From Candidatus Uhrbacteria bacterium (lineage in GTDB: Bacteria > Patescibacteriota > Patescibacteriia > JACQRZ01), in the NCBI GenBank assembly GCA_016186045.1, contig JACPMJ010000005.1, positions 7,143-71,142 on the forward strand: a stretch of DNA of 64,000 nt. Reading direction: 5' to 3'. The notes beneath the pieces were generated by a model. It was not told the DNA's origin, ran no database searches, and saw nothing but the letters and a program-made list of their open reading frames with translations. Position 1 is the stretch's first letter. Each line of letters begins with the position of its first letter. This document shows positions 4,104-49,666 of the stretch, in pieces. A program made the translations under genes and the position numbers.

Positions 4104-4269
4104 AGCCAGGAGAGTCTTTATGTTTATGACGTTTCAATTCAAAGAAATACTGCGCGTCTCACAACGCAAAAATCAAAACTCGCTTCGCTCAAACAGTTGA
4201 TTTTTGCTGTTTACCGCGTGTATTTCTTGTTGAATTTTCACTAATGTAAACATAAAGACTCTCCCGGCT
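4104..4269. mobile_element. MITE-like element copy 1 (about 166 bp, about 24-bp terminal inverted repeats AGCCAGGAGAGTCTTTATGTTTAT / TAAACATAAAGACTCTCCCGGCT)
   Basis: TIRs read directly; internal sequence about 85% identical to reverse complement of 49497-49666. Confidence 0.7.
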
Positions 4270-4280
4270 CTTAATAATTT

Positions 4281-5675
4281 TTAGAAAGGATTTTCAAAAA
4301 GAGCGAATGAGTCGCGACTCTTTTCCAGATTCTGAAAGCTTGCGCGTTTTTCATTCCAAAACAGTCGCGTACTTCCCGTGGGGCCGTTTCTGTGTTTTGC
4401 TACGATGATTTCCGCGGTGTTTCGCTCATCTTCACTCAAATCTTCAAAGCGATAGTTTTTATCCGCGGCTTTGCGATAGATAAAAAGCACCACGTCCGCG
4501 TCTTGTTCGATACTGCCGGATTCGCGAAGATGCGCAAGTTTTGGAATTGCCGGCTTACTCAGCTCTACGGCGCGCGCAAGCTGGGAAAGGGCGACAACCG
4601 GAATGTTTAGTTCACGGGCGATGGCCTTGAGTCCGCGCGTGATTTCCGCCACCTCTTGCACTCTGCCATCACTTTTTGACATACTCTCCATAAGCTGGAG
4701 ATAATCCAAGATAATGACGTCCAATCCATATTCGCTTTGAAGTCTGCGTGCTTTTGTTTTTATTTCTAAAATATTTGCTGACGCGGTATCATCAATGAAA
4801 ATTTTTGCTTCTGAAAGCGTGTTGAGAGAATGGCCGATTTTTACGAAATCGTCAGATTCAGGCTTGTCTGAAAGTTTCCCAGTGCGCATTTTCCATAAGT
4901 CAATACCAGCTTCCGCACAGATCATGCGGTCCACAAGCTGTTCTTTGGACATTTCCAGACTGAAAATACCTACGCTCGCCTTGGATCGTATCGCCATTTT
5001 CCGCGCGATATCCAATGCAAGGCTTGTTTTTCCCACGCTTGGTCGCGCCGCGATAATAATGAGATCCGATTTTTGAAAGCCTGCAAGAATATTATCAAGA
5101 TCAGAAAATCCAGTAGGCATACCGCGTAGCTTTCCCCGTTCGCGATGTAATTCCTCAATTCGCTCAAATGCTTCGGTAAGGATGTTTTTGATTGGGATGA
5201 AAATACGCTTCAGCAGGCGCTGGGAAACCGCAAAAATGCGCTGTTCCGCCTTGTCTAACACCTCCTGGACATCATCTTCAGTCTGATACGAAAGCTGGGT
5301 GATCTCACTTGCCGCTCCTTGCAGTCTGCGAAGCATCGCTTTTTTTTGGATAATACTGGCATAATGCTTGACATTGCTGGATGTGGGAACTGCATTTGAA
5401 AGCTCCATAAGGTAGCTTCTGCCACCCACATATTCCAGCTGTTTTTTTTCTTCAAGCCGGTTTGTCACGCTCAAAATGTCGATTGGCTGGTGTTTTTCGT
5501 ACAGGTCAATCATTGCTTCAAAAACAGTTGCGTGCGCGTTTTTATAAAAATCAGATACATGCGTAACATCCCCTATTTTCGTGATAGCATCTTTGTCTAT
5601 GAGAATAGCGCCAAGGAGCGATTGTTCCGCCTCAATATTATGCGGTGGAATCCGGTCGAGGAGTTCGTTTGGCAT
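4281..5675 (-). CDS. dnaB: replicative DNA helicase DnaB
   Basis: N-term IPPHNIEAEQSLLGAILID, Walker A ARPSVGKTSLALDIA, RecA-like C-domain. Confidence 0.9.
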   Translation of the reverse strand: MPNELLDRIPPHNIEAEQSLLGAILIDKDAITKIGDVTHVSDFYKNAHATVFEAMIDLYEKHQPIDILSVTNRLEEKKQLEYVGGRSYLMELSNAVPTSSNVKHYASIIQKKAMLRRLQGAASEITQLSYQTEDDVQEVLDKAEQRIFAVSQRLLKRIFIPIKNILTEAFERIEELHRERGKLRGMPTGFSDLDNILAGFQKSDLIIIAARPSVGKTSLALDIARKMAIRSKASVGIFSLEMSKEQLVDRMICAEAGIDLWKMRTGKLSDKPESDDFVKIGHSLNTLSEAKIFIDDTASANILEIKTKARRLQSEYGLDVIILDYLQLMESMSKSDGRVQEVAEITRGLKAIARELNIPVVALSQLARAVELSKPAIPKLAHLRESGSIEQDADVVLFIYRKAADKNYRFEDLSEDERNTAEIIVAKHRNGPTGSTRLFWNEKRASFQNLEKSRDSFALFENPF

Positions 5676-5815
5676 AGGAGTGGGATAGTCTGTTATTTGG
5701 GCTTTTTTATTGTATCTGATATAATAAATTTATCAAGGAAGGCGAAGTGGATGAATAGTGGATGAAATACTTGATATTTTTTGGTTATTGTGGTGTAATA
5801 CTGGCATTGTGATAT

Positions 5816-5888
5816 GCGCCCATAGCTCAATCGGCAGAGCAACAGCCTTTTAAGCTGGTGGTTGAAGGTTCGATTCCTTCTGGGCGCA
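5816..5888 (+). tRNA. tRNA-Lys (anticodon UUU)
   Basis: Cloverleaf: acceptor GCGCCCA/TGGGCGC, D-arm TAGCTCAATCGGCAGAGC, anticodon loop CTTTTAA, T-arm GGTTCGATTCC, discriminator A; no encoded CCA. Confidence 0.85.
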
Positions 5889-5962
5889 GAATTGCGTCCC
5901 AAACGTTTTTTGAAAATAAAAAAAGCCGCAATAGCTTGTATCACGGCGTATAAGACTGGTTC

Positions 5963-7384
5963 CTATCTAGAAGCCCTCCTCTTTTTCCTTTTTTGAAAAA
6001 AAGAGGCCTGCTTCCTGTTTCTGAAGTCCACCGGTTTCTTTTCCTGCTGCTCCGTTTGATTGGTGGGGGTCGGTCTGCTTATTTTCTTGACCGACTGCCT
6101 TTTTTGCTGGTAGGTATCCGTACTTTCCAGCGCTTTCTTGACCTTGATGAGAATCGGCTTGATTTGTCTCACGTACCCTGCATCATTGTAGCGTGGGAAT
6201 TTCGATTGAAATTCCTTTATGATGGGAGAGGTGTCAGTGAGAAGGGTATTATCAGGGCAAGGGATGTCATGAAGGCATTTGACGCCATCTTTCACGAGCA
6301 TCAAGACCATCTCATGCAGGTTTGCATTAAGCTCCCTGATGACTCCTATTGGAGAGTTTTCCTCATCCCACACCGGAAGCTGTATGTTGTATGGAAATTC
6401 AGGATTTCCTGAGGGAACCGAGAGAGGAATCTCTTCGATTTCCTCGGTTTCCAGAGTTTCCGTAGTAGTATCTTTTGTGGGATCCAATGGAACAAGCGTT
6501 TCGTGTGCCTTGACAAGCGCGAGAACAGACGGATTCTTTACTTGTTCTTCGGTAGCAGAAGCGAGAATCGGTGGCATGTCCTGAAACTCGGAGCGATCCT
6601 CCATATCCGTATCCGTAGAAACGGCAGAAACGTCGGGAATATGTTTGCCCCCCTGTTGATTTTCTTCTTGCTCAACCTGAACTGGAATTTTCTGTTCCGA
6701 TACGTCGGCCTCTAATTGTTCTAGGAATGCCTTATAGTCAATGTGGGGCTTCATCTTGGTGATGACTCTTTTTGCAAGAGCATACTTACCAAGAGACAGC
6801 AAGACCGAGAAGATCTCCATGGCCGCCTGCACGACTGTCACGTGCTGGCCAGAATCATCCCAGTCAACATATTTCTTGCTATCCTCCAAGAGCGAGAGGG
6901 CATCACTATCACGTTCTGATGCCATGAGAAGGGAGAAAATTGTGTTGAATGCGTAGGCAGGGATCTTCTTGTGAGGTTTATCCCATGCAAAGTACTGCCA
7001 CATATGTTCCAGAAAGCTCAAGGCATCCGTATCACGATCCGCGCCAAGAAGCGCAAAGAAAAGTTTACGAACAGTACCTTGGGTGACTTCTGCCGGAATA
7101 CTCCCGACAAGATGAGGACACGCCTTCTCAAAGGTAGCAAACGCGTCATCATACACCCTAAGACATACGGTTACTTGATGAAACTGATCCTGATTCAAGA
7201 GATAGAGGGTGTTATGTGCCGTTGTGTCTCCCTTGAGGGCTTGGTTGAAGAGAATACTGTCACACATCTCAATGATATCTTCTATTTCATCTGGAGAAAG
7301 CCCATCCAGAAGATCGGCTCCTTTCTTTAAATGATGCAAGAAATCATCCACATTGACAGTGTGGACTATGCGTTTTGAGCTCAT
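5963..7384 (-). CDS. hypothetical protein (acidic middle, basic K/R-rich C-terminus)
   Basis: Long uninterrupted ORF, no recognisable motifs. Confidence 0.5.
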   Translation of the reverse strand: MSSKRIVHTVNVDDFLHHLKKGADLLDGLSPDEIEDIIEMCDSILFNQALKGDTTAHNTLYLLNQDQFHQVTVCLRVYDDAFATFEKACPHLVGSIPAEVTQGTVRKLFFALLGADRDTDALSFLEHMWQYFAWDKPHKKIPAYAFNTIFSLLMASERDSDALSLLEDSKKYVDWDDSGQHVTVVQAAMEIFSVLLSLGKYALAKRVITKMKPHIDYKAFLEQLEADVSEQKIPVQVEQEENQQGGKHIPDVSAVSTDTDMEDRSEFQDMPPILASATEEQVKNPSVLALVKAHETLVPLDPTKDTTTETLETEEIEEIPLSVPSGNPEFPYNIQLPVWDEENSPIGVIRELNANLHEMVLMLVKDGVKCLHDIPCPDNTLLTDTSPIIKEFQSKFPRYNDAGYVRQIKPILIKVKKALESTDTYQQKRQSVKKISRPTPTNQTEQQEKKPVDFRNRKQASFFQKRKKRRASR

Positions 7385-7504
7385 AGTTTCCTCCTTATAT
7401 GAGCGTTACGAACATTTTGTTGTCAAAGACCATGCGACTATGATAGCATATATTACCATTTTTGTCAATACCCTGCACTTTTCCCCTTATTTTACACATA
7501 ATTA

Positions 7505-8746: not shown

Positions 8747-8855
8747 TCCTCCTTTCATTCAATTCTAATTCTATTTTATGCGACTTGAAGATGTTCGAAT
8801 ACAGCGCCTATATCATATTATAAGAGTTCATCTTTAAATGAAGGGAGGACAAGAT

Positions 8856-10358: not shown

Positions 10359-10374
10359 CAATAAGACACTTCCC

Positions 10375-11561
10375 ATGCTTTTTCGTTTTTTTGCAAATTT
10401 TTTGTCCGATACAAAATATTTTTTACCGCAGTGTGTTTTTCTCATATACGCCAGCATGTTGTTTTTTCCTCTGTATGCATATTCCAGTGATGAAATGGGC
10501 GGAAATGCGGCAGGAGACATGAAAAATACTACGGTCCTTGAGCTTAATCAGCAGATTCAGCAGAAAAAAACAACAATTTCGAATCTTCGGAAGAGGATTG
10601 AGGTATACCAGAGAAATATCAAGATGCGGCAGACAGAAGCGGCAAATCTTGAAAATGAGATAGCGTCCATTGAGGATTCTGTTTCAGAAACAACGCTTGA
10701 CATTGAAGCAACGCAAGCAGAGATAGACCAGCTTGACCTTGAAGTCCAAGAGGCGGAGCTGGAAATAAGTCAGCGGGATGTGGAATCGTCTGTGCAAAAA
10801 GAAAAGGTGGGGGAATTTTTGCGGACCATTTATGAAGAAAACCAGCGGGATACTGTTGAACTCTTTTTTTCCAGCGAGAATTTCAGCGATTTTTTTAATC
10901 AAGTGCAGTATTTGGAATATGCGCACTCAGAACTTTATCGCACGCTGATGCGTATCAAGCAGCTCAAAGAACAGCTTACAAATCAACGGAGCGCGCTTGA
11001 AGAAAATAAAAAACGGCAAAGCGAACTCAAGACAAAACTCCTTGCAAAAAAAGATGAACTTGAAGATAAGAAAACCACCAAAGAGCATCTTATAGCTCAA
11101 TCCATTCTTTCCAAAGAGAAGTTTCAGCAGTTGCTCGCGGAAGCGCGAAAAGAGCAGCAGCAGATTGACAACGATATCGTGTATCTGGAGCGGAGTATTT
11201 TCATGATCCGTCATATCCGTATCGGTACGTCTATGAACATCCAGCTGTGGATATTCGGGCGTACCAAGGGACATCCATACAAGCGGCTGAAGCAGGATAT
11301 GTGGCACGCACAAAAAACGGCGGGGCAAAAGGGTATAGCTATATTATGATTCTCCATGACAGTGGTCTCGCCACAGTCTATGGACATGTGAACATAATAT
11401 TGGTTTCACAAGATACGTATGTGAAAAAAGGACAGGCGATAGCGCTTTCCGGCGGTAAACCCGGTACGGTAGGGGCCGGACCGCTGACTACCGGCCCGCA
11501 TCTTCATTTTGAGGTGCGTCTCAACGGGATTCCTGTTGATCCGTTGAAATATTTACCATGA
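10375..11561 (+). pseudogene. M23 family metallopeptidase (EnvC/NlpD-like: signal peptide + coiled coil + M23 domain) interrupted by a frameshift near 11195-11205
   Basis: Coiled-coil part in frame 1 (to 11349), M23 domain (HDPSYPYRY...VDIRA...GPHLHFEVR) in frame 0 open from about 11080 to 11561; T4 run at 11197-11200. Confidence 0.6.
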
Positions 11562-11585
11562 ATCAGTACTCAGTACTATTCTTGT

Positions 11586-13231: not shown

Positions 13232-13240
13232 CTGCACAGA

Positions 13241-13932: not shown

Positions 13933-14084
13933 TTTGAGGGTATTATCCACAGTTTTTTAGTGTTTTTTATGCTATACTTAACTGGGTATAATATCTCAAA
14001 CGCTCAGTAAAATGGATATTTGTAAAACTGACGGTGTGTTATCAAAGAAAGCCCTTCCCCTTTCCATATAACAGTCAAAATAAT

Positions 14085-15029
14085 ATGCTCCCCCTCTTTG
14101 ATGATTTCATCCTCCATTTGCAAGTAAATAATTATTCGAATGAGACGATCTATAATTATGAACGTGATCTTCGCGTATTTGAGATTTTTCTTATTGAGGA
14201 TGCACGGATTAATGACTTCTCCTGTGTTACAAAACAGACCATTGAGAGGTATAAGGCATATTTGAACTCCCGCGATAGAAAAACCGCCATTGGAGATAAG
14301 AAAAAAAGCGATTTAAGTTCATTTTCAAAAAATAGATTTTTTTCTTCTTTGCGCGGGTATCTGAAATATCTTATTGAGATGGATGTCAAAACTCCGATCC
14401 TGCCGGAAAACATACATCTCATAAAAACAGAGAAGAAAGTACCAAAAGTTGCCGAGCTTGCCGAGCTTGTCCGTCTCATAGAATTTCCCAGCTCTTTTGA
14501 AAAAAATATAAAAGTAGCGAAGAGAAACAGAGCGATGCTTGAGATACTTTTTTCGACCGGTTTACGTATCTCTGAATTAGTGAGTCTTAAAAAAGATCAT
14601 TTGGATTCGCGAGGAAGAATCTTTGTCATGGGAAAGGGGAAAAAAGAACGTTTTGCATATCTCACGCCACGTGCGATTGATCATCTGAAAGAGTATGTAG
14701 CGCTCAGAAAAGATACTATCCCCTATTTGTTCATTCCATACCGGGGAAGTCGGCTATCAAGCAATAAAGCGTGCATATCCACAAATTATCTTCAGGAAAA
14801 AATTAAGCGGTATCGGGAGATGTTGGGCATGAACATTCCCACATCCGCCCATTCTTTGCGGCACGGTTTTGCCACGTATTTAGCAGAATCCGGAGCAAAT
14901 CCAGCCGCGATACAAATTCTTCTCGGACATGAATCACTTGACACGACCACACGATATGTGCACGCTTCAGATAGATACGCGGAAAAGACGCACAGGACAT
15001 TTCATCCGCTCAAAAAAAGAACGGGTTAG
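14085..15029 (+). CDS. tyrosine recombinase, XerC/XerD-like integrase
   Basis: C-terminal catalytic box HSLRHGFATYLAESGANPAAIQILLGHESLDTTTRYVH (R..HxxR..Y); ORF track start 14034, ATG 14085 more likely. Confidence 0.8.
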   Translation: MLPLFDDFILHLQVNNYSNETIYNYERDLRVFEIFLIEDARINDFSCVTKQTIERYKAYLNSRDRKTAIGDKKKSDLSSFSKNRFFSSLRGYLKYLIEMDVKTPILPENIHLIKTEKKVPKVAELAELVRLIEFPSSFEKNIKVAKRNRAMLEILFSTGLRISELVSLKKDHLDSRGRIFVMGKGKKERFAYLTPRAIDHLKEYVALRKDTIPYLFIPYRGSRLSSNKACISTNYLQEKIKRYREMLGMNIPTSAHSLRHGFATYLAESGANPAAIQILLGHESLDTTTRYVHASDRYAEKTHRTFHPLKKRTG

Positions 15030-19030: not shown

Positions 19031-19698
19031 GTTTTTTGACAACATGGCGCACCACATAAGCCGAATTCTGTATCCATCATCCGCCTCCGCCAGTTGGCGG
19101 ATAGCGGAGGTGGATGGTGACCATCACTCTATCTTCATGATTACCCATGAAGTATTGCGAGCGTCTATTGCTCTTGCATCTGGTAGGTGTTTGCCAAGCT
19201 GACACATCACTATGCCACTGGTGCGCTCTTACCGCATTTTGCATATTCTTTTTTAACTAGGAGAGTTTAAAGAACGATTTTGAATATGCAAGTATTTATT
19301 TGCGTCAACCCTTATTCGGGTATCCACACCATTTCACCCTTACCCATAGCCATCGCCTGGGCGGTATGTTGTTTCATTCAAATCATCCAAATGAAACCTT
19401 TGCGCATTCGCAAAGCTTTTCTGTTGCTCCCCTGTTTCTGAAAAATCAGAAACAGCGAAATTTGGCTCGTAAAAACCAAGACACTATCCCGTATGCCAGT
19501 CCCCTGCTTTTTTGAATAAGAAAAGGGTATTCCCCTCGTCTTGATCACATAAAAAAGAAAGAAAAAGCCATAGGTCGCTGTTAGCGACTACCCTGTTGTC
19601 CGGCAGTGCCGGACAGATGTTCGGACTTTCCTCCCCTGAATATGGAAATATATCCATTTCAAGGGCGATCACCGTGGTGCGCCATGTTGTCAAAAAAC
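19031..19698 (-). ncRNA. rnpB: RNase P RNA (bacterial type A-like, about 670 nt with large insertions)
   Basis: Minus strand carries GGGGAGGAAAGTCCGAAC (P4 5' strand), GCAACAGAAAAGC, GGGTAAGGGTGAAATGGTG, GCGGTAAGAGCGCACC, ACAGAATTCGGCTTA (P4 3' strand); ends form 25-bp perfect helix (19031-19055 / 19674-19698). Confidence 0.8.
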
Positions 19699-21728: not shown

Positions 21729-21845
21729 AGGGAATAGAGGGTGTCATCCTGAGTGATAACGAAGGATCCCGTTGGTATCATGTTTTTAACATCGGGATTC
21801 CTCTCCGCCAGCTGGCGGATCGGAATGACATACATAGTATTCCCT
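21729..21845. repeat. A-type palindromic element copy 1 (GTCATCCTGAGTGA...GGGATTCCTCTCCGCCAGCTGGCGGATCGGAATGACATACATAGTATTCCC)
   Basis: Right 49 bp identical (1 mismatch) to 38451-38499; core CCGCCAGCTGGCGG 21805-21818. Confidence 0.8.
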
Positions 21846-22062
21846 AAAAAAGAGGGGGAACGAACGTTTTTCATTCCCCGTGGTGGAGAGGTTGGATATT
21901 TGATGGGCTGCCCCGTAGCCGGTATTCCCGCGATCGGGAATACCGTGCCGAGCCCTCGCGTTCATCGCGAGGGTGAGGGGGCCACGCTTACCCTGTTTGA
22001 CCGCAGACTCCCTGATTCTGGTACAGAATCAGATCAGCGTCCACGCAAAAGCGTATGCAGTA

Positions 22063-22116
22063 GGGTCACGTCTAAGGTGACCTACCTTTTTCGCATAGTG
22101 CAAAACGGTCAAGAAA
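22063..22116. repeat. B element copy 2 (GGGTCACGTCTAAGGTGACCTACCTTTTTCGCATAGTGCAAAACGGTCAAGAAA)
   Basis: About 90% identical to 23592-23646; contains hairpin GGTCAC-GTCTAAG-GTGACC; lies just 3' of ATPase gene. Confidence 0.7.
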
Positions 22117-22183: not shown

Positions 22184-23341
22184 TTATGGAATCTTCATGG
22201 TAAGAGTGGCAAACGCCTTCGCCGCCTCTGTCCCGGACTTCACATCGATGGTTCCATCCTTCAAAACTTTAATGTCGGATGAATACTTATCAAGAAGTCC
22301 TCGCACGACCGCGAGTTTGAGCTTCCATCCTCCGAGCATGAGGCGCGCGGTGTTTCTGCATCCGCGATAACTCGGGGCGTATGAGATAGCGCCGGAATGC
22401 GCGAGATCGCGTATTGCTCGTGCGACCTGCACGATTGCGAGCGCGGCGCGTTCCGAGATACCCACCTCATCCTTGAGTTTTTTCACCTCGAAGTCCTCCG
22501 GCATGGACTCCACCCAAATGAATCCAAAACGATCCTGAAGAGCGGTGCCGAGAGAGAAGACGTCTTGATGCTGTGCGCCTTGATTCATGGTCCCGATGAA
22601 GTGAATATTCGGCGAGAGTCTGATCGTAACACTCCCGTCGGTCGTAGTAATAGCAATTTGCCCGGTGTCATCAAAAAGACCGTGCATACCCTGATGCGAC
22701 TTTTCATGGATGCGATTGATCTCATCCAAGATGACGAGGAAGTGCGTGTTCAGTCCTTGAGCGTATGCGATATTCGCCCGCTCTACGTAATCTGCAAAGG
22801 CGGACTTGACAAACTTTGTTGATGCATTCACTGCGGCATCGGATCCAAACATGTCGTTGCCATGCTTGATCGTCTCAATGTCCACCTTGCAGGGTTCTTG
22901 CCAGTGAAGGGCGTGAGCCACCGCATAGCCAAGGGTCGTCTTTCCGCTTCCCTTATCACCGAGAAGGATGACGTTGGTTCCATTGTTCAGCCAGTTCAAA
23001 AGCTGGCTCAACATAAGTGGATCGGTCCAGTGGCCAGGCAATTCTTTGATCTTTTGCCAGTCCGCAAGCTCCGTTTTTCTGGAAATAAGTCGCACAAACG
23101 ATGTACTCGTTCCCTTGCGACTTTTTTCTTGTCGTTCAAGTTCAACATGCCAAATATCACCATCATTGACGGCAACATTTGTCTGGTTTATCACCTGAAT
23201 CGCGGGAGGAATGTCATATTCCTCAACAAACGAAAGACAAGACACACCCTGTTCGGTGGTATGCGCTCGGGCAAGAAGTAAGTCCGCCATTATGTATCCA
23301 TCCTTTCTTTCTGTATCTTTGTAAAAGTACGGTTCCTCCAT
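22184..23341 (-). CDS. AAA+ ATPase, MoxR/CbbQ/NirQ/CobS-like, with about 110-aa N-terminal extension
   Basis: Walker A GDKGSGKTT, Walker B FLVILDEINR, sensor region IGTMNQG, arginine-rich C-terminal helical lid. Confidence 0.85.
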   Translation of the reverse strand: MEEPYFYKDTERKDGYIMADLLLARAHTTEQGVSCLSFVEEYDIPPAIQVINQTNVAVNDGDIWHVELERQEKSRKGTSTSFVRLISRKTELADWQKIKELPGHWTDPLMLSQLLNWLNNGTNVILLGDKGSGKTTLGYAVAHALHWQEPCKVDIETIKHGNDMFGSDAAVNASTKFVKSAFADYVERANIAYAQGLNTHFLVILDEINRIHEKSHQGMHGLFDDTGQIAITTTDGSVTIRLSPNIHFIGTMNQGAQHQDVFSLGTALQDRFGFIWVESMPEDFEVKKLKDEVGISERAALAIVQVARAIRDLAHSGAISYAPSYRGCRNTARLMLGGWKLKLAVVRGLLDKYSSDIKVLKDGTIDVKSGTEAAKAFATLTMKIP

Positions 23342-23490: not shown

Positions 23491-23591
23491 CACGGCGACT
23501 TTGATCCTATGGCGCAAGAAATGTTTTGTAAAGAAATGCTTGCGCGGATGGGATTTCCATTTGATCGAGGACGGCTTGATCAGATACGGTT

Positions 23592-23646
23592 GGATCACGT
23601 CTAAGGTGACCTACCTATTTCGCATGATGCAAAACGGTCAAGGAAA
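23592..23646. repeat. B element copy 1 (GGATCACGTCTAAGGTGACCTACCTATTTCGCATGATGCAAAACGGTCAAGGAAA)
   Basis: Immediately 3' of RT stop codon (23657-23659). Confidence 0.7.
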
Positions 23647-23656: not shown

Positions 23657-24901
23657 TTATTTGAAAGGAATGGACTCGTCCGCAGTATCCTTCTTCTTGC
23701 GACTTCTGCGCCGAGGTGGCTCCTCGGTGGCAATCTGTGTTTCCGCCGAAGTTTCCGAAGTTTGCGGCTCTGGAGTGACAGCAGTCGTTTTCTTGCGTCT
23801 GCGCGGTTTCTTACCTAACTCTCCGGCAAGCTCATTGAACTTGATGGTCTTGAGCTCGGTTTCGGCTTTTTCCGTAATAGCACGAACCTTGCTTGGGAGC
23901 TTGTCAGAATAGATATGGCGAAGATAGCCGATAGTGCCGGCGATCTCTCCGTATACCTGTTTGGTGGGCTCCGCCTTGATGACCGCGAGGAGCTTGTTGA
24001 TCCTCGCGCGGAACTGGTTTAGCTTGTTTGGGGCAAGCGTAATCCGTCCGTCCGGAGCCAAAACGATTCCCGTGATCACTGGTACTGCTCCGGTTTTTGG
24101 AGTGAAGTACTTCGTCTTGTCTTTCCGTTCATGAGGAAAAAATCCATTCTTTTTCATGACGGCAAGAATCCTCTTTCGGAGCTCCCCGGGAATTTCTTCC
24201 TCAAAGGAGATCGTGAGATCATCGCACCATACCGTGATGCGATACTCCTGAAGCGGTGTGGAGTTTTCCGAGATCAGCTTCCAGATATCCTGATCCATCT
24301 TACAGCAGACGATATCAAGGATGCGTGGACTGGTCGGAGGGCCTTGCGGGAGACGGTCATGGAGACAGACGAGATCCACGAGAGACTCGAGCATCTGTTT
24401 TATCTCTTCCGCCTCGAATGTCTGTCCGGAAAATTGCTTCAGCGCAAAGGTGAAGGGTTTGCGAAGATTCGCGCGGATCCTACTCCGATAGACACTGGGA
24501 AAGGCGTTCACAATGTCGATCGAAAAGGCTCGCTCATTTCCCGCGTGGTGCTCTGCGTTTGTCTTCACACTGCACCCTCGCTGGTTCCCGTGCCTGCAGA
24601 AATGTACCGGAATGGAAATTAGAAATCTGTTAAGGATCTTTCGCTGGACGCTTTTAAGTTCATCACAGGGAGCCGCATAACGTCGTACTCCTCTGCCCGG
24701 CCCCTTTGATTCCGCCCACTCGCGGTATGCCGCCTTTTGACGAAGCTTGTCGAGACAAAAATCCCACTCCTGCGTGGAGAGATGAAGCAAGAGTCGTAAA
24801 ATTCGCGCAAGTCGTTCTGGAAGCTCCAGAACGCTCTCGAAATCCTTGTACACCCATTCTTTGGGCGTATGACGCCGACGCCGACGTGTTGAAGTCGCCA
24901 T
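23657..24901 (-). CDS. reverse transcriptase, retron-type/retron-like
   Basis: SKGPGRGVRRYAAP (motif 1), NAEHHAG (NAxxH), FSIDIVNAFPSV (motif 2), LPQGPPTSPRILDIV, VWCDD catalytic box (YADD variant), KTKYF, VITGIVL (VTG); 130-aa C-terminal extension with basic tail. Confidence 0.8.
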   Translation of the reverse strand: MATSTRRRRRHTPKEWVYKDFESVLELPERLARILRLLLHLSTQEWDFCLDKLRQKAAYREWAESKGPGRGVRRYAAPCDELKSVQRKILNRFLISIPVHFCRHGNQRGCSVKTNAEHHAGNERAFSIDIVNAFPSVYRSRIRANLRKPFTFALKQFSGQTFEAEEIKQMLESLVDLVCLHDRLPQGPPTSPRILDIVCCKMDQDIWKLISENSTPLQEYRITVWCDDLTISFEEEIPGELRKRILAVMKKNGFFPHERKDKTKYFTPKTGAVPVITGIVLAPDGRITLAPNKLNQFRARINKLLAVIKAEPTKQVYGEIAGTIGYLRHIYSDKLPSKVRAITEKAETELKTIKFNELAGELGKKPRRRKKTTAVTPEPQTSETSAETQIATEEPPRRRSRKKKDTADESIPFK

Positions 24902-38404: not shown

Positions 38405-38499
38405 GTCATCCTGAGTGAAGCGAAGGATCCCGTTCGTGATAAAGAGCTGGGATTCCTCTCCGCCAGCTGGCGGATCGGAATGACATACATAGTATACCC
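38405..38499. repeat. A-type palindromic element copy 2
   Basis: GTCATCCTGAGTGAAGCGAAGGATCC...CCGCCAGCTGGCGGATCGGAATGACATACATAGTATACCC; marks the gap-proximal edge of the GC-rich island. Confidence 0.8.
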
Positions 38500-38586
38500 T
38501 ATTTTTATAATCTTCACAAAATAAAAAAAGACTTATTGCATTTTGCGATAGGTCTTTGAAATTTTTTTTGCGGAATTACGGGGATG

Positions 38587-38651
38587 ATCCCTACCTTACC
38601 ATGCCTTGCCCCGCCGGACCAAACCATACCATACCGGACCTCACCGCACCT
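38587..38651. repeat. C-type array: strict 5-nt periodic (NNNCC)x12 tract beginning CCCTACCTTACCATGCCTTGCC
   Basis: CC dinucleotide every 5 nt read directly. Confidence 0.75.
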
Positions 38652-39381: not shown

Positions 39382-39423
39382 CTCTCGTACCTCCTTACCT
39401 TAAATTGAGAGAGTTTTCGAATG

Positions 39424-39512
39424 GGCCCTACCTTACCGTGCCTTACCACGCCTTACCACGCCTAACCTCGCCACGCCCAGCCAGACCGCAACCCCACCAG
39501 ACCAAACCCTAT
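39424..39512. repeat. C-type array: (NNNCC)x13 decaying to NNNAC, begins GCCCTACCTTACCGTGCCTTACC
   Basis: Same orientation and 5' sequence as 38587 copy. Confidence 0.75.
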
Positions 39513-39667: not shown

Positions 39668-41908
39668 TTAGGAGAGACTGAATACGAGATTATCCAGACT
39701 TCCAAGTAGGAACGGAGTATCACTCAGTGCGCACGCGGCGATTTTTTCGCACGTGAGTGAGGTGAGTGATGCCGTGTATCTTTCTTTGGACGGTACGGGA
39801 CTTTCCTTCAACTCCTGCTGTGCCTCCTCGCACAATGGAAGGTGAATGGCGAGATGCTCGCCGCCAAAGGAGATACCGAAGGCGCTGGCGTCAGAAGGAT
39901 TCAGCCGAATCGCTTCACCCCAATCTTCCCTCCGGGAGAGATGCATACGCATGGGAACGTATATGTCGGAATACGTCGCAAGGACCATGTGGTGATCCAT
40001 GTATGCCGACATCATCTCGAGGATATACGGTTCGAGTACTCCGCCTTCGAGCAAAACACCCGCCTCCTTTACGGTCATTGCTCGGCCGTCGGCGACAATC
40101 GTACTCATGATGATCGGTTTGAGAAGTTCAGTCGCGATAGTGGTCGGGATTCCCAGCATCTTTTTTTGAAGAGAGGGATCCGGCACACACACCGCGGTTG
40201 CGGAATAGTCTACCCGCCGCTCATAGAAGTCTCTCGCGGCATTATCGATCTCCATATCGATACTCTGAAGAAGACGGCCAAATGAACCCTGGAGTGTGGT
40301 ATTGCGCATCAGCGTTTCTACCGCCTCCTGTACCATTTGGCACTCGTTTCTGATGATGATCTCTGGGGCACCCATCTCCATCAGACGACTGACACGATTA
40401 TTCCTACCGATAATGCGTCGATACAGATCGTTGAGATCTGATGTTGCGAAAGTTTTTGCATCGTATCGGACCATCGGTCGGAGGTTGGTGGGCAGAACCG
40501 GGAGATTGCGTATAAGGAAGCGTGAGATATCAACCCCTCGCTCCATGCACACGCTCTCGAGTGCCGCCACTCCCCAGTCGCTTGGTTCGGCATCGTCATC
40601 ATCATCCACTATGGATCGTTTGTAATCGATGACAGCGAGAATGCCCTCGATATCTCCGATGCCGACTTGTGCAATAGTTTGTGCACATTGCAGCTTGAGC
40701 CATGGATGGACAACCGGAATCGCAAGTTTGATATGACCAAACCTGCTATTCGGTGCCAAGTGTGTATCAACTTGGACGCCGCACTTCATGCACGTGATAC
40801 CCTTATGCCTGATGCCCTCGAGTCTGCCACAACTGCACTTCAGATCTCGGCCGTTTCCGAAGATCGCCTCGCAGAAGAGACCTTCGTGTTCTGGCTTCAA
40901 TGTTTTGTAGCTGATGGTCTCTGGACGTTTTACCTCGCCGTGTGACTGCTTGACGATCTGCGCATCGGTTATGCGCATGATATGTAGAGCACCATCTTCA
41001 ACTTTCGTTGAGAAACCGCACCCAACCATCAATGTTGCAAGTCGATGTGCGGAGTGAGTCGGTGGTGTTTCCAATGCGGGGACGGGATTTCGGAGAAGCA
41101 ATGCTTCATATGCTGTTGCTCGCGCGCGTATGCCGCTTGATTTGACCATAGCCATTTCCACAGCGTTCTGTACGTATCCGAGGTGCGCAAACTTTTGGAT
41201 GTTGACCTTTTGTCCTGGATTTGGATGTTCCGATAGGGGCTGTTGAGTGACTAGGCTATACCGTCCAGTCGAACGTCCAGCCAACTTGTCTTCCATGCGC
41301 CGCGTTATTTTCGTGAGTTTCACGGCACGAAATGCAGGACCATCCGAATCCGGAACTGGAAGTCCCTTGAGGATATCAGCGTCTGGATGGACGAGAATAT
41401 CCGTACCAAAGGAAAAGCATCCCTTGGCGCTGAACCCTGCTACGACCAAGGTATGGCCGTGGTTATCATTAAGGACATCGCCGACAGCCAGCTTGCGCTG
41501 GATGAGGAGGTCGATGGTTACGACCTTACCCTTGTTGAAATCCTTGATCTCTACGTTTGTGACCAACGCCTCATCCCGCTGTTTTGCGATCGCGACGATG
41601 GGTTGTGTCTGGGCAAGCGTTGCGGCGAGTACCGAGCGCTGTGCGACTTTCGTACCGACCATCACTACGCCATTCTTATCCAGATTCGCACCCGGAAAGT
41701 ACCCCTCGAAGTCTGCGGGTTTTGCGCTTTTTGCCGGCGCATCGATAGAGAATGGTGACTGGCGCTCCAGAAGCGCGGTGTCAAACCGCCCCTGATCGCG
41801 CACCTCCTCTGATACGATGCAGGCGTTGCCGGTCAGCTGCGGATATGTCCGCAGAAGGTTTTTTCCGGCTATTCGGAGTCTGAGTCTTGATTTCCCATCC
41901 AGGATCAT
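39668..41908 (-). CDS. RNA polymerase clamp-module homolog: RpoB C-terminal-like region fused to RpoC N-terminal-like region, catalytic residues not conserved
   Basis: RSTGRYSLVTQQPL (beta), EVKRPETISYKTLKPEHEGLFCEAIFG, zinc finger CSCG...CMKCG, FATSDLNDLYRRIIGRNNR clamp helices, RVDYSATAV; NADFDGDQM replaced by AYMDHHM. Confidence 0.6.
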   Translation of the reverse strand: MILDGKSRLRLRIAGKNLLRTYPQLTGNACIVSEEVRDQGRFDTALLERQSPFSIDAPAKSAKPADFEGYFPGANLDKNGVVMVGTKVAQRSVLAATLAQTQPIVAIAKQRDEALVTNVEIKDFNKGKVVTIDLLIQRKLAVGDVLNDNHGHTLVVAGFSAKGCFSFGTDILVHPDADILKGLPVPDSDGPAFRAVKLTKITRRMEDKLAGRSTGRYSLVTQQPLSEHPNPGQKVNIQKFAHLGYVQNAVEMAMVKSSGIRARATAYEALLLRNPVPALETPPTHSAHRLATLMVGCGFSTKVEDGALHIMRITDAQIVKQSHGEVKRPETISYKTLKPEHEGLFCEAIFGNGRDLKCSCGRLEGIRHKGITCMKCGVQVDTHLAPNSRFGHIKLAIPVVHPWLKLQCAQTIAQVGIGDIEGILAVIDYKRSIVDDDDDAEPSDWGVAALESVCMERGVDISRFLIRNLPVLPTNLRPMVRYDAKTFATSDLNDLYRRIIGRNNRVSRLMEMGAPEIIIRNECQMVQEAVETLMRNTTLQGSFGRLLQSIDMEIDNAARDFYERRVDYSATAVCVPDPSLQKKMLGIPTTIATELLKPIIMSTIVADGRAMTVKEAGVLLEGGVLEPYILEMMSAYMDHHMVLATYSDIYVPMRMHLSRREDWGEAIRLNPSDASAFGISFGGEHLAIHLPLCEEAQQELKESPVPSKERYTASLTSLTCEKIAACALSDTPFLLGSLDNLVFSLS

Positions 41909-42023
41909 CGGATTCCTCCTTGCATCCCGTCTTCCGACAGGTAAAGCCCGGTTTTCCCGAGCGTGTCAAAGAACCGATAGTAATGTACATGCATGAATTA
42001 TATATTGTCAAGGAGCTGTACTG

Positions 42024-42150
42024 AGGCCGTTGCAAAACTCAGCTAAGCATGTCATTCCCGCGAAGGCGGGAATCCAGTTCTTTTAATTTAAGAAGAATTC
42101 TGGATCCCCGATCAGGTCGGGGATGACAATCGGAGGGTTTTGCAACGGTC
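42024..42150. mobile_element. MITE-like insertion with about 15-bp TIRs (AGGCCGTTGCAAAACTC / GAGGGTTTTGCAACGGTC) carrying a GTCATTCCCGCGAAGGCGGGAATC...GGGGATGACAA palindromic element; flanked by 18-bp direct repeats TGTCAAGGAGCTGTAC(TG/AG) at 42006-42023 and 42158-42175
   Basis: TIRs and direct repeats read directly. Confidence 0.7.
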
Positions 42151-42195
42151 TCTGTACTGTCAAGGAGCTGTACAGCGCGAGTACATAGGTAACAC

Positions 42196-42672: not shown

Positions 42673-42701
42673 CTATCAGTCAAGAACTACTCGTTCTCCT
42701 A

Positions 42702-44165: not shown

Positions 44166-44359
44166 AACACCACTAATTGATGTCCTGAAGAGAAAGTGGG
44201 AGCAAATCAGTACGAATACTATCTACTCCCAAATTACTTCAACCCCGTATCTTTTCACGCGCCGGCGATTATCCCGGCAAACTTCGCGACGGCCCCTTCG
44301 ACAAGGACGCTCGTCACCTCCTCGTCCATGCAGTCATGAATATACTCCCTTCTTCTTGG

Positions 44360-45055: not shown

Positions 45056-45420
45056 GAAATCTCCAGAGAAGGCTATAACCCCACTCGGCCTTTACCGAAT
45101 GCAAGGCGGATTTTCACCCTCACTTCAGAGCATGCAGAGAGAGCTCCGATGCCCTGAAGAGAAGGTGAAATATTTTCTATATCTAAAACATGGCTATTCT
45201 CCTTTCTTCAAGGGTTGAAGATTGTAAGGAACAATTTGTATTACTATAATCCAAATATAACAGAGAGAAATAACATGTCAATAGCAAATTGACCACTTTT
45301 CATTATAATTTCAAGATTATTCTGACCATAATAAAAGGATTTACTACAATAAGAGGAAAATATGTCAGATGTATTTGACATTGTTAAATTATATGATATA
45401 ATTAAATCAACATTCTCTGT

Positions 45421-46185: not shown

Positions 46186-48611
46186 CCACGATACTCAAAT
46201 ACAAGTTGAGCGTGCTCTGCGTTTTTTGTGTATCGAGAAAGAACGTAGCCGTGTGCCAATGGGGCGAATATCTCCTGCATTATACGGGGATCGAATAGAT
46301 CACGCGTGTCTACTTCAAATGCGATTATCGATTTTTTTTCGGCAATTTGCTCTGATATGTCGAGCAGTGAAAAAGAAAGGAGCGGCGACGGAAATTCCGG
46401 CTTTGATCTTGATTTGATTTGCCGATCAATAATAAGAACGCCGTCCTGCTCTTCTTTATCATAATGGAAACTAACTCCCTCGAATTTTGCCTGCTCGATA
46501 TAGGAGGCGGCAATATCTTTCCACACCGATGTCTTTCCACGAATTAATGCGTCTTTTGACTCCTTCTCCAGCGCCTGCATAATAATAGAAGGATAGAATC
46601 CCGACCCTCTGTATGCAGTCTCGAAAAACAACGCGCTCCAAAATTTTTCATGCGGTGCCGTGTCGGTGAACACCGCCGATCCGATAAGAGGTTTCGGAGT
46701 TTTATCTTCTCGCAAAATCACATAAAAACGGCTTTTATTTTCCGGATCATTTACCCGCGCGTCCAGCTCTGCAAGAAGGCGGTCAACTTTTGCATTGTCG
46801 CCCCACTCTTTGCGCAGACTTTTCTCGTACCCCGCATGCACCATTCTCGTTATTTCTTTATGGGTGCGCATTTCTTTGGAGGTAAACTCATGCAAGTGGA
46901 ATAGTTTTACGTCTTCTAGGTCGATATGCTCCCCTTTCAGTGCCGCAACCCCCGCGCAGATCATAGACGCCTGCTCGTCAATCATTTCCAGGTCTGCTAA
47001 CAACTCTTTTTGATTCTTTTTTTTCACTGCTCCATGCAATAATTCTTTGCCGCGAGCAAGGAGATTGACAGTGAATGCACGCACAACTGGTTCTGCTTTC
47101 GGGCCTCCTCCAAAATTTTCTCGAAGATAATCAGCCGCGCGGTAAGCTGTCTGGGCGATTTTCGCGTATTTCTGAAAGAGTGGTGCTGCCGCATTTCCAA
47201 ATCGCCTCCCGATATCAATAAGTTTTGCGCCAAATTCTAGATCTCCTTCAGTTGCAAGAAGCGAAGTAAGCGCGTCATTGCCAAATTGTTTTACAAAATC
47301 TCTCATGGAAAGAGCGTGCATAATATCTTGCTGACTAAAAAAACTTAAAAAATTACGTTGCACCCACAATGGCTGATGATTTAATGTAATACCGAAATGA
47401 TTTTCAATAATCTCGCGCATCTGCAGACACATAAGATACGAATATTCATCGTATGACGCGGGATCAAAAGAAGCGGCTCCAGGATGCAGTGCAGTAAAAA
47501 AATCCTCCTTCGCTAATGGGTAATGGGGAGAATGGCCCCTCTTCTCTGCGAAGGAAAGAATATTTACTTCTTCCCCAGGGAATAAGTGCGATATATAGTT
47601 TCGAAGCCACACTTCCAAATGAGGGGACATCATGATTGCGGCAGTGGCATTGGCTTTCGCTGCGTTCAGCGCTTCGTAATCCTCATCAGTAGCAAAAAAA
47701 ATCGCAGACATTCTCCCTGTTTTCTGATATTCAGCGATATAGTGCGGCGCGAGCTGATAATAGTGTGCGTTTGGATTGTTATCTTTTCCAATAAGATAAC
47801 CACTCTCATTTTCTTCTTTGAAATGTTTTACCCGATAACGTTCAAAAGAATCGATGTGACACCTTTTGCCACCGATCTCCTTACCCTCGATAAAATAACC
47901 AAGCTGCAAATAGCGACCATAAATAAGAAAATTGCTATTTCTATGACGCGCCATAATATCGGCAATTCCGTAAAATTTCTTAGCACACTCGCTTTGGATA
48001 TCATGTCTGTCTTGGGGTAGAGATGCAATCAAGGCGCTGCTATAATGTTCAAAAAAATCGAGAATCTTATGGGAAAGCACATTGGCATACGGCCGATTAA
48101 TGAGCTGCAGTAATATAAAACCCTTTGATGCAGACGGCGATAACGAGTCGAACGGATATAATACTTCCTTGTTAACCTGCAAAAGCTCACCAGATGCTTT
48201 ATTATCTGCTCGATATTGGGACGCTACTCCAAGAAGTGTAAGGAGAGAAAGAGAGAGTTTTGTATTGGGTTGTATTTGATTCGCGATTTCAGCCTCAAGG
48301 CTCCTGATAAGCGCGGGGCGTTCTTGTTCGGGTGCATATTCAAGAGTCGCGCGGACATTACGGATAATTTCGAAAGTTTCGCTTCCATCCTGATCGATAA
48401 AAAAAATAGAGAAATCTTTTGGCAGCAATTTCATAGCATCCTCCTCCGTCGGCACCTCCTGTATCAGCTCGCAGAGCGCAATTAGCTCCTGCACGGCATG
48501 CTTAGGGAGATCGAATCCCTCTTTTCTAAATCTTGTAAATGTCTCTATTAGTTCCTGCCGAATCGACGGAGGCGTTTCTGGTAATCTTTGTGATTCGTGT
48601 TCTGATCGCAT
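46182..48611 (-). CDS. hypothetical large protein (809 aa)
   Basis: ORF only. Confidence 0.5.
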   Translation of the reverse strand: MRSEHESQRLPETPPSIRQELIETFTRFRKEGFDLPKHAVQELIALCELIQEVPTEEDAMKLLPKDFSIFFIDQDGSETFEIIRNVRATLEYAPEQERPALIRSLEAEIANQIQPNTKLSLSLLTLLGVASQYRADNKASGELLQVNKEVLYPFDSLSPSASKGFILLQLINRPYANVLSHKILDFFEHYSSALIASLPQDRHDIQSECAKKFYGIADIMARHRNSNFLIYGRYLQLGYFIEGKEIGGKRCHIDSFERYRVKHFKEENESGYLIGKDNNPNAHYYQLAPHYIAEYQKTGRMSAIFFATDEDYEALNAAKANATAAIMMSPHLEVWLRNYISHLFPGEEVNILSFAEKRGHSPHYPLAKEDFFTALHPGAASFDPASYDEYSYLMCLQMREIIENHFGITLNHQPLWVQRNFLSFFSQQDIMHALSMRDFVKQFGNDALTSLLATEGDLEFGAKLIDIGRRFGNAAAPLFQKYAKIAQTAYRAADYLRENFGGGPKAEPVVRAFTVNLLARGKELLHGAVKKKNQKELLADLEMIDEQASMICAGVAALKGEHIDLEDVKLFHLHEFTSKEMRTHKEITRMVHAGYEKSLRKEWGDNAKVDRLLAELDARVNDPENKSRFYVILREDKTPKPLIGSAVFTDTAPHEKFWSALFFETAYRGSGFYPSIIMQALEKESKDALIRGKTSVWKDIAASYIEQAKFEGVSFHYDKEEQDGVLIIDRQIKSRSKPEFPSPLLSFSLLDISEQIAEKKSIIAFEVDTRDLFDPRIMQEIFAPLAHGYVLSRYTKNAEHAQLVFEYRG

Positions 48612-48810
48612 AGACTATGTTTAACGACTCAAAAGAAAGATTTTTCTGATACTCACATAGTATCATACATATTTCTCCAAAACAATTTTATTGAGACATA
48701 TCGGTAACACTGGGAGAGTCGCCAGACTCTACTACCTAACGTATCTCATTTTTTACAGCGGAAACCTATGAAAAACTAAAATACCCGCAGAATATGCGGA
48801 TATTTTAAGT

Positions 48811-48883
48811 GGGTTCTCGGGTCAAGCCCAAGCCTGTCCTCGGACTTGATCCGAGGAATGGCGCATATATCGGGAATGACAAG
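48811..48883. repeat. palindromic family member (GGGTTCTCGGGTCAAGCCC...CCTCGGACTTGATCCGAGG...GGGAATGACAAG)
   Basis: Hairpins read directly; sits between tsf stop and the 809-aa gene. Confidence 0.6.
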
Positions 48884-48887
48884 ATAT

Positions 48888-49472
48888 TTACAACGCGAAA
48901 CGGCTGAAGCGATGTATCTGGATATTTTCCCCTGTTTTCGCAATCATCTGCGTAAGAAGTTGTTCTACGGTCTGTGAGTCATCTTTTACGAATTGTTGTT
49001 TTAAGAGACAGACCTCCTGATAATATTTTGCAACTTTTCCAGTGAGAATCTTTTCAAGAATTTCCGGTGGTTTTTTCTCTCCCACCATTTGATCGCGGTA
49101 GATTTCTTTTTCTTTCTCAATAAGTTCTGCGGGTACTTCTTCAGTACGTACATAGAGCGGATTCATGGCCGCGATCTGAAGCGCGATATCATGGGCGAAA
49201 TCCTTAAACTCATCGGTGCGCGCCACAAAATCCGTCTCACAGAGAAGCTCTACGAGAACGCCTACTTTGCCGTTTGGATGGATGTATGAAAGGATAAGCC
49301 CTTCTTTTGTGGATCGGTCTTGTTTGTTTGCGGCAACCTTTTGTCCTTTTTTTCGTAAAAATTCTACCGCCTGTTCATAATTTCCGTTCGCTTCCTCTAA
49401 TGCCTTTTTACAATCTACAATGCCGGCGCCGGTTTGTGTGCGAAGCGTAGTGACAAGCTTTGGGTCGATCAT
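48888..49472 (-). CDS. tsf: elongation factor Ts
   Basis: MIDPKLVTTLRTQTGAGIVDCKKALEEANGNYEQAVEFLRKKG UBA-like N-terminus. Confidence 0.9.
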   Translation of the reverse strand: MIDPKLVTTLRTQTGAGIVDCKKALEEANGNYEQAVEFLRKKGQKVAANKQDRSTKEGLILSYIHPNGKVGVLVELLCETDFVARTDEFKDFAHDIALQIAAMNPLYVRTEEVPAELIEKEKEIYRDQMVGEKKPPEILEKILTGKVAKYYQEVCLLKQQFVKDDSQTVEQLLTQMIAKTGENIQIHRFSRFAL

Positions 49473-49496
49473 ATACCTTTATATTTATCATTTAGA

Positions 49497-49666
49497 GGAA
49501 GTGGGAGATTTTTTATGTTTATATTAGCGGAGATTCAATGAGAAATAGGCGTGGTGAGTAGTAAAAATCAATTGTTTGAGCGAAGCGAGTTTTGATTTTT
49601 ACGTTATAAGACGCGCAATATTTCTTTGAATCGGAGCGTCATAAACATAAAAAATCTCCCACTTCC
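49497..49666. mobile_element. MITE-like element copy 2 (170 bp, perfect 26-bp TIRs GGAAGTGGGAGATTTTTTATGTTTAT) between tsf and rpsB, opposite orientation to copy at 4104-4269
   Basis: Perfect inverted repeats 49497-49522 / 49641-49666. Confidence 0.75.

Follow-up and report, generated by a model that had tools for sequence, protein, structure and literature searches.

A probable MITE-like hairpin element sharing its tip with elements of other phyla at two housekeeping loci of a Candidatus Uhrbacteria bacterium

Introduction

[quoted passage not shown] Here we describe two copies of a hairpin element, copies A and B, found in a stretch of 64,000 nt (the window) of contig JACPMJ010000005.1 from a Candidatus Uhrbacteria bacterium, where copy A separates dnaB from recR and copy B separates rpsB from tsf. 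Both loci probably carry a non-autonomous, non-coding, MITE-like hairpin element belonging to a superfamily that extends across phyla. Among described systems the Neisseria Correia/NEMIS, enterobacterial ERIC/IRU and pneumococcal RUP elements resemble the window element in being non-coding, 100–170 bp in length and bounded by terminal inverted repeats (TIRs), as well as in their intergenic position, frequent co-transcription, occurrence in either orientation, formation of a long RNA hairpin and presence or absence between relatives. Each of these element types is restricted to a single genus or family and has conserved ends, whereas the present elements vary in ends and stem and have a 26-nt tip in common across at least eight phyla. 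There is also neither a TA nor any other duplication around the whole window unit, and no BLASTN similarity to E. coli genomes, which carry ERIC.

The REP/REPIN-RAYT systems are similar in that structure is kept over sequence, the fold is strand-specific and copies occur without an adjoining transposase. They consist, however, of palindromes of 20–40 nt with a GTAG or CGTC tag and include a RAYT gene that has REPs on either side, whereas the window copies end in GAGCC/GGAAG, the elements are much longer, several families show target duplications and the shared motif is found across phyla and in the loop rather than at the foot. Integron attC sites, which are recombined by an Xer-like tyrosine recombinase, are likewise imperfect hairpins (approximately 60–140 nt) that are active as a folded single strand and free in stem sequence, and an Xer-like gene is present in the window (14034-15029). 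In attC the conserved boxes (R''/L'' and L'/R') lie at the foot and the tip is variable, which is the reverse of the window element, and attC sites stand in one orientation in cassette arrays beside intI whereas the tip-hairpin elements are dispersed and occur in both orientations. A likeness in physical motif rather than in genetic element is offered by d(GCGAAGC) and other DNA mini-hairpins with GNA loops, reportedly the work of Hirao and co-workers; the tip contains GCGAAGC, with variants GC-GNA-GC or GC-GNNA-GC, here read from sequence alone. Finally, IS1397 and ISKpn1, which enter REP loops, and ISPpu9/10 are autonomous insertion sequences targeting the loops of palindromes (PMC1525189). 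Entry into a pre-existing palindrome loop with a short duplication is also what 5-nt repeats suggest for the inner part of the window element; those insertion sequences carry a transposase gene, whereas the unit inserted here would be a gene-less 99-nt hairpin, with targeting suggested by two copies.

Results

Two copies of one hairpin element in housekeeping spacers

Copy A (4103-4270, 168 nt) and copy B (49497-49666, 170 nt) lie 45 kb apart and were found to within 1 nt of the sites given in an earlier sequence-only reading of the window, which had described a MITE family present in two intergenic regions in opposite orientations. A repeat search showed the arms 4109-4265 and 49503-49659 to be mutually complementary over 157 nt (84%, gap-free), and alignment of copy A with reverse-complemented copy B by MAFFT gave 87% column identity, in agreement with the approximately 85% reported in that reading. 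The TIRs, which it had put at 24–26 nt and perfect over 26 nt in copy B, measured 24 nt with 96% identity in copy A (4103-4126/4247-4270) and 26 nt with 100% identity in copy B (49497-49522/49641-49666), and the internal block that it quoted was correct. The 28-mer AAAAATCAAAACTCGCTTCGCTCAAACA occurs exactly twice in the window, on opposite strands, with 0.00 occurrences expected in shuffles. Each copy forms one continuous imperfect hairpin, with RNA minimum free energies of -70.1 (A) and -66.2 (B) kcal/mol and fold z values of -10.0 (A) and -11.5 (B), and none of 200 shuffles was equally stable. A covariance model of tip plus stem, R1, run on the 64-kb window with filters off, detected copies A and B alone, at 63.7 and 60.1 bits, the next best score being 11.6. 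Both copies are below the upper size of approximately 500 bp for MITEs, possess TIRs and are without coding capacity, since the open reading frames (ORFs) inside them span 14–26 codons only and are not conserved between A and B. Their small size, non-coding nature and TIRs, together with spacers that are empty in relatives (see below), bear out the description of a MITE family.

The two loci comprise the following features, gene identities being from Pfam.

3492-4094, minus strand: recR
4103-4270, minus strand: copy A, complete hairpin element, in the spacer from the dnaB stop (4281) to the recR start (4094)
4281-5675, minus strand: dnaB
48888-49472, minus strand: tsf
49497-49666, plus strand: copy B, complete hairpin element, in the spacer from the rpsB stop (49674) to the tsf start (49472)
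49674-50555, minus strand: rpsB

The order of genes is dnaB, copy A, recR at one locus and rpsB, copy B, tsf at the other. As the minus strand carries all four genes, the copies are oppositely oriented relative to transcription. The better-folding strand, reading GAGCGAAGCGAG, is the minus and transcribed strand in copy A and the plus strand, antisense to the operon, in copy B.

A tip motif common to unrelated hairpins from several phyla

A total of 185,579 species genomes were scanned for the exact 21-mer CAAAACTCGCTTCGCTCAAAC, which is carried by both window copies. The 21-mer was present at at least 119 loci, distributed over approximately 60 assemblies among the matches listed and often in multiple copies per genome, where by our own estimate about 0.3 chance matches would be expected in 596 Gb. 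The hosts among the matches listed belong to at least eight phyla (Bacillota, Bacteroidota, Pseudomonadota, Campylobacterota, Thermodesulfobacteriota, Nitrospirota, Fusobacteriota and Patescibacteria), a list that is a lower bound and possibly skewed; its Pseudomonadota carriers are Gamma- and Betaproteobacteria and its carriers from the candidate phyla radiation (CPR) represent three lineages. In most copies among these matches the 21-mer tops a long continuous hairpin (median 157 nt), and the stems fall into approximately 55 mutually unrelated sequence groups. Across 58 aligned representatives, covariation is seen in the stem beneath the tip, with 151 double-change cells vs 69 in shuffles and none of 500 shuffles reaching as high a count. 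The tip is invariant across all 58, which as a measure of within-family conservation is biased because the loci were picked by exact tip. Read on the better-folding strand, the tip module comprises approximately 26 nt, (C)AAyTGTyTGA-GC-GNA-GC-GAGTTTTG, and in both window copies a tip of this type (...TGTyTGA-GC-GNA-GC-GAGTTT...) closes a long covarying hairpin. Related families reach at least 10–16 copies in one assembly, and plasmid searches revealed unannotated copies in Ilyobacter, Chondrinema and Aureibacter. Cultivable carriers include Ilyobacter polytropus DSM 2926, Sedimenticola hydrogenitrophicus, Natronincola peptidivorans, Peptoniphilus ovalis, Undibacterium baiyunense and Lachnospiraceae C6A11 and V9D3004. 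A viral origin was dismissed, as the tip motif was present in 5 of the 2.9 million viral contigs in the collection. The conserved interior had previously been taken as a possible trace of recent transposition, a proposal that did not hold: the conserved core is the cross-phylum tip motif, and the likeness between copies A and B is only about 85%.

A second conserved module often stands ahead of the tip hairpin in other phyla. It consists of a small hairpin, GTTACTTTTGCCTTGATGCAAAAGTAAC, with AAAAAATCAAGGC after it, and was seen at L037 (1150-1650), L126 (3915-4365), L080, L108, L031, L078, L093, L046 and L124. Loop and tail of this module show complementarity and covary (CTTGAT/ATCAAG, CTTGAA/TTCAAG, CTTGAC/GTCAAG, TCGCC/GGCGA). 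Units with the second module are often paired face to face, 100–200 nt apart, and 21 places on the Ilyobacter polytropus megaplasmid match it. Neither window copy contains the GTTACTTTTGCCTTGATGCAAAAGTAAC/AAAAAATCAAGGC module.

Strand-specific folding and structure of the tip

The strand with the reading GTTTGAGCGAAGCGAGTTTTG gives the more stable fold in 54 of 55 groups (mean difference 13 kcal/mol), and in the window copies the better and worse strands gave -78.0/-68.9 and -76.6/-64.0 kcal/mol. This asymmetry extends to the stems alone, in which mismatches giving G.T wobbles on the better-folding strand outnumber those of the reverse kind by 146 to 76 (p = 3e-6), or by 36 to 12 when counted per group. 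Unpaired stretches of the better-folding strand, such as GGAGGA and GAATGAG, are rich in purines. Variants of the tip, identified through similarity of the arms, retain a GC-N(3-4)-GC mini-hairpin, the loop of which on the better-folding strand is GAA, GTA, GCA, GCCA, GTCA or GTTA, flanked by R-A/R-A, and one variant has the longer mini-stem GTCCC-TGAAG-GGGAC. Indels among these variants (+1 and +8 nt) are not multiples of three and leave the mini-hairpin intact. Changes in the tip variants excluded both a peptide reading and an alternative tip fold. A small-peptide gene, for which the tip would translate as ..QLFERSEF, was ruled out by the family-dependent position of the ORF and by the non-triplet indels, and the fold proposed by the energy model, in which CTGTTT is paired with AAGCGAG, was rejected as changes at its paired positions are uncompensated.

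Strand asymmetry of this kind might indicate that the element is mainly a structured RNA, either a small RNA (sRNA) gene or a cis-acting module, the tip being a motif that binds protein or RNA, for example of K-turn-like or GNA-loop type, and the MITE-like spread its vehicle. The better fold of one strand in 54 of 55 families with enrichment of G.U-type wobbles there, the purine-rich unpaired regions (GGAGGA, GAATGAG), the conservation of the tip far above the rest of the element and the fact that the better-folding strand of copy A is the one transcribed with dnaB-recR are all consistent with such a role. We nevertheless consider it unlikely, because the window copies are oppositely oriented with respect to transcription and orientation across loci is split 25/24, the window copies have no consensus promoter or terminator, no Rfam family is matched even at permissive thresholds and the element is absent at both sites in relatives. 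The loops themselves may also hint at DNA: GNA triloops and non-GNRA GNNA loops (GCCA, GTCA, GTTA) are better known as DNA mini-hairpins, and loops of the GNA/GNNA kind with closing G-C pairs are characteristic of very stable ones. The consistently better fold of one strand leaves some room for the functional payload that had been suggested for the conserved interior, but no sign of service to the flanking genes was seen.

Probable composite anatomy of the window copies

The 168-nt unit is probably composite, with a 99-nt inner element lying within an outer palindrome. Its parts are given below; the direct repeats of both copies were read from the sequence.

4103-4131: copy A, outer arm, low-coordinate half, GAGCCAGGAGAGTCTTTATGTTTATGACG, including the 24-nt TIR (sequence and repeat search)
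4132-4136: copy A, left 5-nt direct repeat TTTCA, matching 4236-4240; putative target duplication of the inner element
4137-4235, minus strand: copy A, inner element, 99 nt, ends ATTCAA...TTGAAT, 86% identical to the inner element of copy B
4174-4199, minus strand: copy A, conserved tip module, CAAAACTCGCTTCGCTCAAACAGTTG on the plus and CAACTGTTTGAGCGAAGCGAGTTTTG on the minus strand, with the GCGAAGC mini-hairpin at 4182-4188
4236-4240: copy A, right 5-nt direct repeat TTTCA
4241-4270: copy A, outer arm, high-coordinate half, CTAATGTAAACATAAAGACTCTCCCGGCTC
49497-49527: copy B, outer arm, low-coordinate half, including the perfect 26-nt TIR
49528-49532: copy B, one of two 5-nt direct repeats, reading CTCCG on the minus strand
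49533-49631, plus strand: copy B, inner element, 99 nt
49569-49594, plus strand: copy B, conserved tip module, in which GAGCGAAGCGAG begins at 49578 on the plus strand, with the GCGAAGC mini-hairpin at 49580-49586
49632-49636: copy B, the other 5-nt direct repeat, likewise CTCCG on the minus strand
49637-49666: copy B, outer arm, high-coordinate half

The direct repeats, TTTCA in copy A and CTCCG in copy B, occupy equivalent positions and are identical at 5/5 positions within each copy while differing at 3/5 between the copies, a pattern for which we estimate a chance of approximately 1e-5. The simplest reading is that the inner element entered the loop of the outer palindrome on two separate occasions, with 5 bp duplicated each time. 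The whole 168-nt unit could instead be one ordinary MITE, the 5-nt repeats being a symmetric feature of an internal loop and the likeness of tips a product of recent horizontal spread without constraint. This would suit the nearly equal divergence of the inner and outer parts between A and B (86% vs approximately 80% identity), the two of three differences between TTTCA and CTCCG that are also compensatory base-pair changes and the weak enrichment of direct repeats across families. It would, on the other hand, leave the 5/5 identity within copies and 3/5 difference between them to a chance of about 1e-5, and stems diverged beyond recognition around an identical tip are the reverse of neutral decay; we therefore regard it as highly improbable.

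Repeats of 8 nt flank short inner units at two other loci (L020 and L090). Two observations weigh against extending nesting beyond the window: enrichment of symmetric direct repeats across families is modest, at 1.5–1.9-fold, and the inner/outer junction of the Piscirickettsiaceae copies shows no repeat. For these reasons nesting is graded as likely in the window and as unproven in general. The outer TIR (GGAGAKTYTTTATG...) resembles a Shine-Dalgarno site followed by ATG, and a metagenome scan with the TIR pattern of the window matched only true gene starts (ribosome-binding site plus ATG) of unrelated genes.

Signs of mobility in the wider superfamily

Target duplications were sought by inspection and a simple scan, with gene calls in foreign loci being crude longest ORFs. 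Group 0, from Acetivibrio and related Bacillota (ends GGGTGCATG...), showed clean 9-bp target duplications at at least five loci (AATACCTTG at L018, GATATAGTT at L022, AAAAATTAT at L023, CATACTTTT at L087 and TAATCATCA at L054). Duplications of approximately 8–9 bp were observed in group 5, from Thermodesulfobacteriota (ends GGTAACTATTCAGCC), and duplications of 8, 9 and 10 bp at L077, L083 and L097 respectively. Several families have clear TIRs. The elements are intergenic, and relative to co-directional neighbours 25 are in the same and 24 in the opposite orientation. As the lengths of duplications differ (5 and 8–10 bp), more than one kind of transposase may be involved; and since these lengths and the ends vary between families and the tip does not, the tip is not tied to end recognition by a single transposase.

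These data also bear on whether the hairpins could be single-strand-DNA elements of the REP/REPIN-RAYT or IS200/IS605 (PATE) kind, recognised as hairpins by an HUH/Y1 enzyme. A strand-specific fold, a structure kept with free sequence and the lack of an adjacent transposase do recall REPINs. Several families, however, show 8–10-bp target duplications and true TIRs, and Y1 transposases are not known to produce either. The ends carry no GTAG or CGTC tag, REPs are species-specific and not cross-phylum, and no Y1 transposase is present in the window, so that an origin of this kind appears improbable.

Two loci of one Piscirickettsiaceae assembly, L019 (3720-4435) and L067 (1647-2366), have flanks that are homologous on opposite strands (83.5%), while the element's inner 172 nt give the better alignment when kept in the same orientation (90.1%). 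The loci are thus homologous with the element oppositely oriented, suggesting in-situ inversion or repeated insertion.

Both insertion sites are empty in relatives

Homologues of RpsB and RecR assign the organism to Patescibacteria (CPR). Relatives share approximately 80–90% protein identity with the window, and named Uhrbacteria/Patescibacteria matches share 55–60% for RpsB and approximately 65–76% for RecR. Where gene order is the same, the rpsB-tsf spacer is 13 nt (L127), 20 nt (L129 and L130) or 5 nt (L131), vs 201 nt in the window, and the dnaB-recR spacer is 21 nt (L151 and L153) or 6 nt (L152), vs 186 nt in the window. Given spacers of 5–21 nt in relatives with approximately 80–90% protein identity, both window copies represent insertions, and the presence or absence of the element between relatives, with both sites empty in several of them, is as found for MITEs. 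The dnaB-recR spacer of one further relative (L154) is 149 nt of unrelated sequence.

Comparison of the tsf-rpsB spacer in relatives showed the site to be empty except for a different hairpin in L132. It had been proposed that this spacer is where an autoregulatory leader usually sits, a suggestion left unsupported by relatives with only 5–20 nt there, by the silence of Rfam and by the opposite orientation of the two copies with respect to transcription. The known S2 leader is located upstream of rpsB; a leader would lie upstream of the gene it regulates, whereas copy B lies downstream of rpsB. The L132 element (10781-10930; RpsB 81% identity) is a 150-nt hairpin with ends TCGAGCGGAGCTGT..., and contains the tip-like motifs GAGCGAAGCGAG and GAGCGAAAGCGAG and also the tip-like GGTTTGAGCGAAGCGAGAGAAC.

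Searches for known families and partner genes

At gathering score, Rfam models gave no match on the elements in the window and 18 foreign loci, the sole hit in the window being a tRNA-Lys, and permissive scans of copy A, the Ilyobacter element and a Bacteroidales element returned only generic matches of the miRNA-precursor-like long-hairpin type. A 16-mer of the tip was in no searchable paper and keyword searches of the literature gave no description. A relation to ERIC or to a fragment of a universal gene was dismissed, as BLASTN against 5,426 E. coli genomes gave no match to the element and a 32-nt tip query yielded only an 18-nt partial match to gltX (E = 6).

All-against-all comparison of ORFs from the 119 loci listed revealed no recurrent neighbouring protein, only response regulators, UvrA/ABC ATPases and similar, and no multi-copy protein was found in approximately 1 Mb of carrier loci. 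The 64-kb window contains no DDE or Y1 transposase, its only enzymes of mobile type being the Xer-like recombinase and a retron-type reverse transcriptase (RT). A link of the hairpins to either was rejected, both genes being 10–25 kb off and no such neighbour occurring at other loci. No consistent consensus promoter or terminator was detected in the window copies, and promoter or terminator function was discounted on that ground.

Other features of the window

Three further long hairpins are present in the window, and no link could be drawn between them and the tip-hairpin finding. A 165-nt hairpin element of a different family (50645-50800; ends GGAACACTTGTGATATAG...CTGTATCACAAGTGTTCC) is situated in the spacer that separates rpsB (start 50555, minus) from the divergent gene for L31 (50975-51268, plus), and its fold is strongly strand-biased (plus -79.8, minus -56.9 kcal/mol). 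It is this rpsB-L31 spacer, not the rpsB-tsf spacer, that is the expected place for an S2 leader. A branched hairpin of approximately 125 nt at 42018-42172 (GCCGTTGCAAAAC...GTTTTGCAACGG), flanked by the 15-nt direct repeat TGTCAAGGAGCTGTA, looks like another mobile element. The third, at 55277-55392, has 18-nt ends TAGACCTGTTGCGAAATA...TATTTCGCAACAGGTCTA around a CCGCCAGCTGGCGG palindrome. Palindromes of the CCGCCAGYTGGCGGA family occur at 19080, 19790, 21797, 23380, 25565, 38452, 50593, 55305 and 60144, mostly just past gene ends, and two of them are alike over 53 nt at 98% (21794-21846 and 38449-38501); they could represent terminators or REP-like sequences. Short-period CCTTACCACGCC-type repeats were seen at 38584-38630, 39421-39487 and 57805-57876, two of these places being direct and the third inverted.

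Among protein-coding features, the retron-type RT (23657-24901, minus) adjoins an AAA ATPase gene (22184-23341). Its best PADLOC matches are RT_XIII and RT_VI, an NCBIfam match to retron St85 being below cut-off, and a 62-nt repeat follows both the RT and the ATPase gene (22055-22116 and 23584-23645, 87%). The XerC/XerD-like tyrosine recombinase (14034-15029) scores under the NCBIfam equivalog cut-offs and is probably the host Xer. A 746-aa ORF at 39668-41908, within the window's highest G+C stretch (0.518), matches RNA polymerase domain fragments only (Rpb2_6 near the N-terminus, then Rpb1_1 and Rpb1_2) and could be a fused or truncated rpoB/rpoC-like gene. A 127-aa minus-strand ORF (50903-51286), which has no Pfam match, overlaps the 97-aa plus-strand ORF at 50975-51268 and is probably spurious, since the latter is ribosomal protein L31 by synteny with relatives.

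Discussion

On the favoured reading of a non-autonomous, MITE-like hairpin, the elements would be moved in trans by transposases that make staggered cuts. In the window, the 99-nt inner element would have entered the loop of a pre-existing 65-nt outer palindrome (24–26-bp stem) with a 5-bp duplication, and this insertion would have extended the palindrome into one 168-nt hairpin. A hairpin RNA of about -64 to -78 kcal/mol without a terminator tail would now split dnaB/recR and rpsB/tsf, and the effect on the host is probably altered processing or translational coupling rather than that of a regulator. The tip is probably a constrained cis-acting site, and it would act in the folded single strand, more likely of DNA than of RNA. 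Its GC-GNA-GC mini-hairpin with flanking G.A pairs may start hairpin or cruciform folding and may be recognised by a protein.

Several observations weigh against this interpretation. No autonomous partner or transposase was found in the window, the carrier loci or the plasmid searches, and the whole 168-nt unit in the window has no flanking duplication, TA or other. Only two copies are visible, as the rest of the source genome consists of contigs of approximately 1–2 kb, and at about 85% likeness these two are not recent. The outer stems vary between copies of one genome and are fully compensated (window A vs B; L019/L025/L036/L067), which would not be expected of termini that are read by a transposase. 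A functional RNA would, moreover, also be compatible with the strand bias of folding and the purine-rich loops.

Going beyond the MITE-like hairpin itself, a bolder proposal, to which we give limited credence, is that the tip is the recognition site of a cross-phylum machinery that moves folded single-stranded hairpins, preferentially into the loops of palindromes. This would constitute a new, structure-guided class of mobile element that differs from DDE-type MITEs, REPINs and attC cassettes. In an alternative version, MITEs would carry the tip as a widespread, undescribed RNA motif.

The pattern usual for bacterial MITE and REP families is reversed here, in that stem and ends undergo compensated drift whereas a tip of 21–26 nt is identical in CPR, Proteobacteria, Firmicutes and Bacteroidetes. 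A conserved tip on a drifting stem suggests that some conserved partner recognises the folded strand at its tip, be it an enzyme, a host factor or an RNA, and the R1 model provides a concrete handle for seeking this partner. For annotation, the element accounts for long 'orphan' spacers within the essential operons of small CPR genomes, and cautions against calling such spacers leaders or sRNAs.

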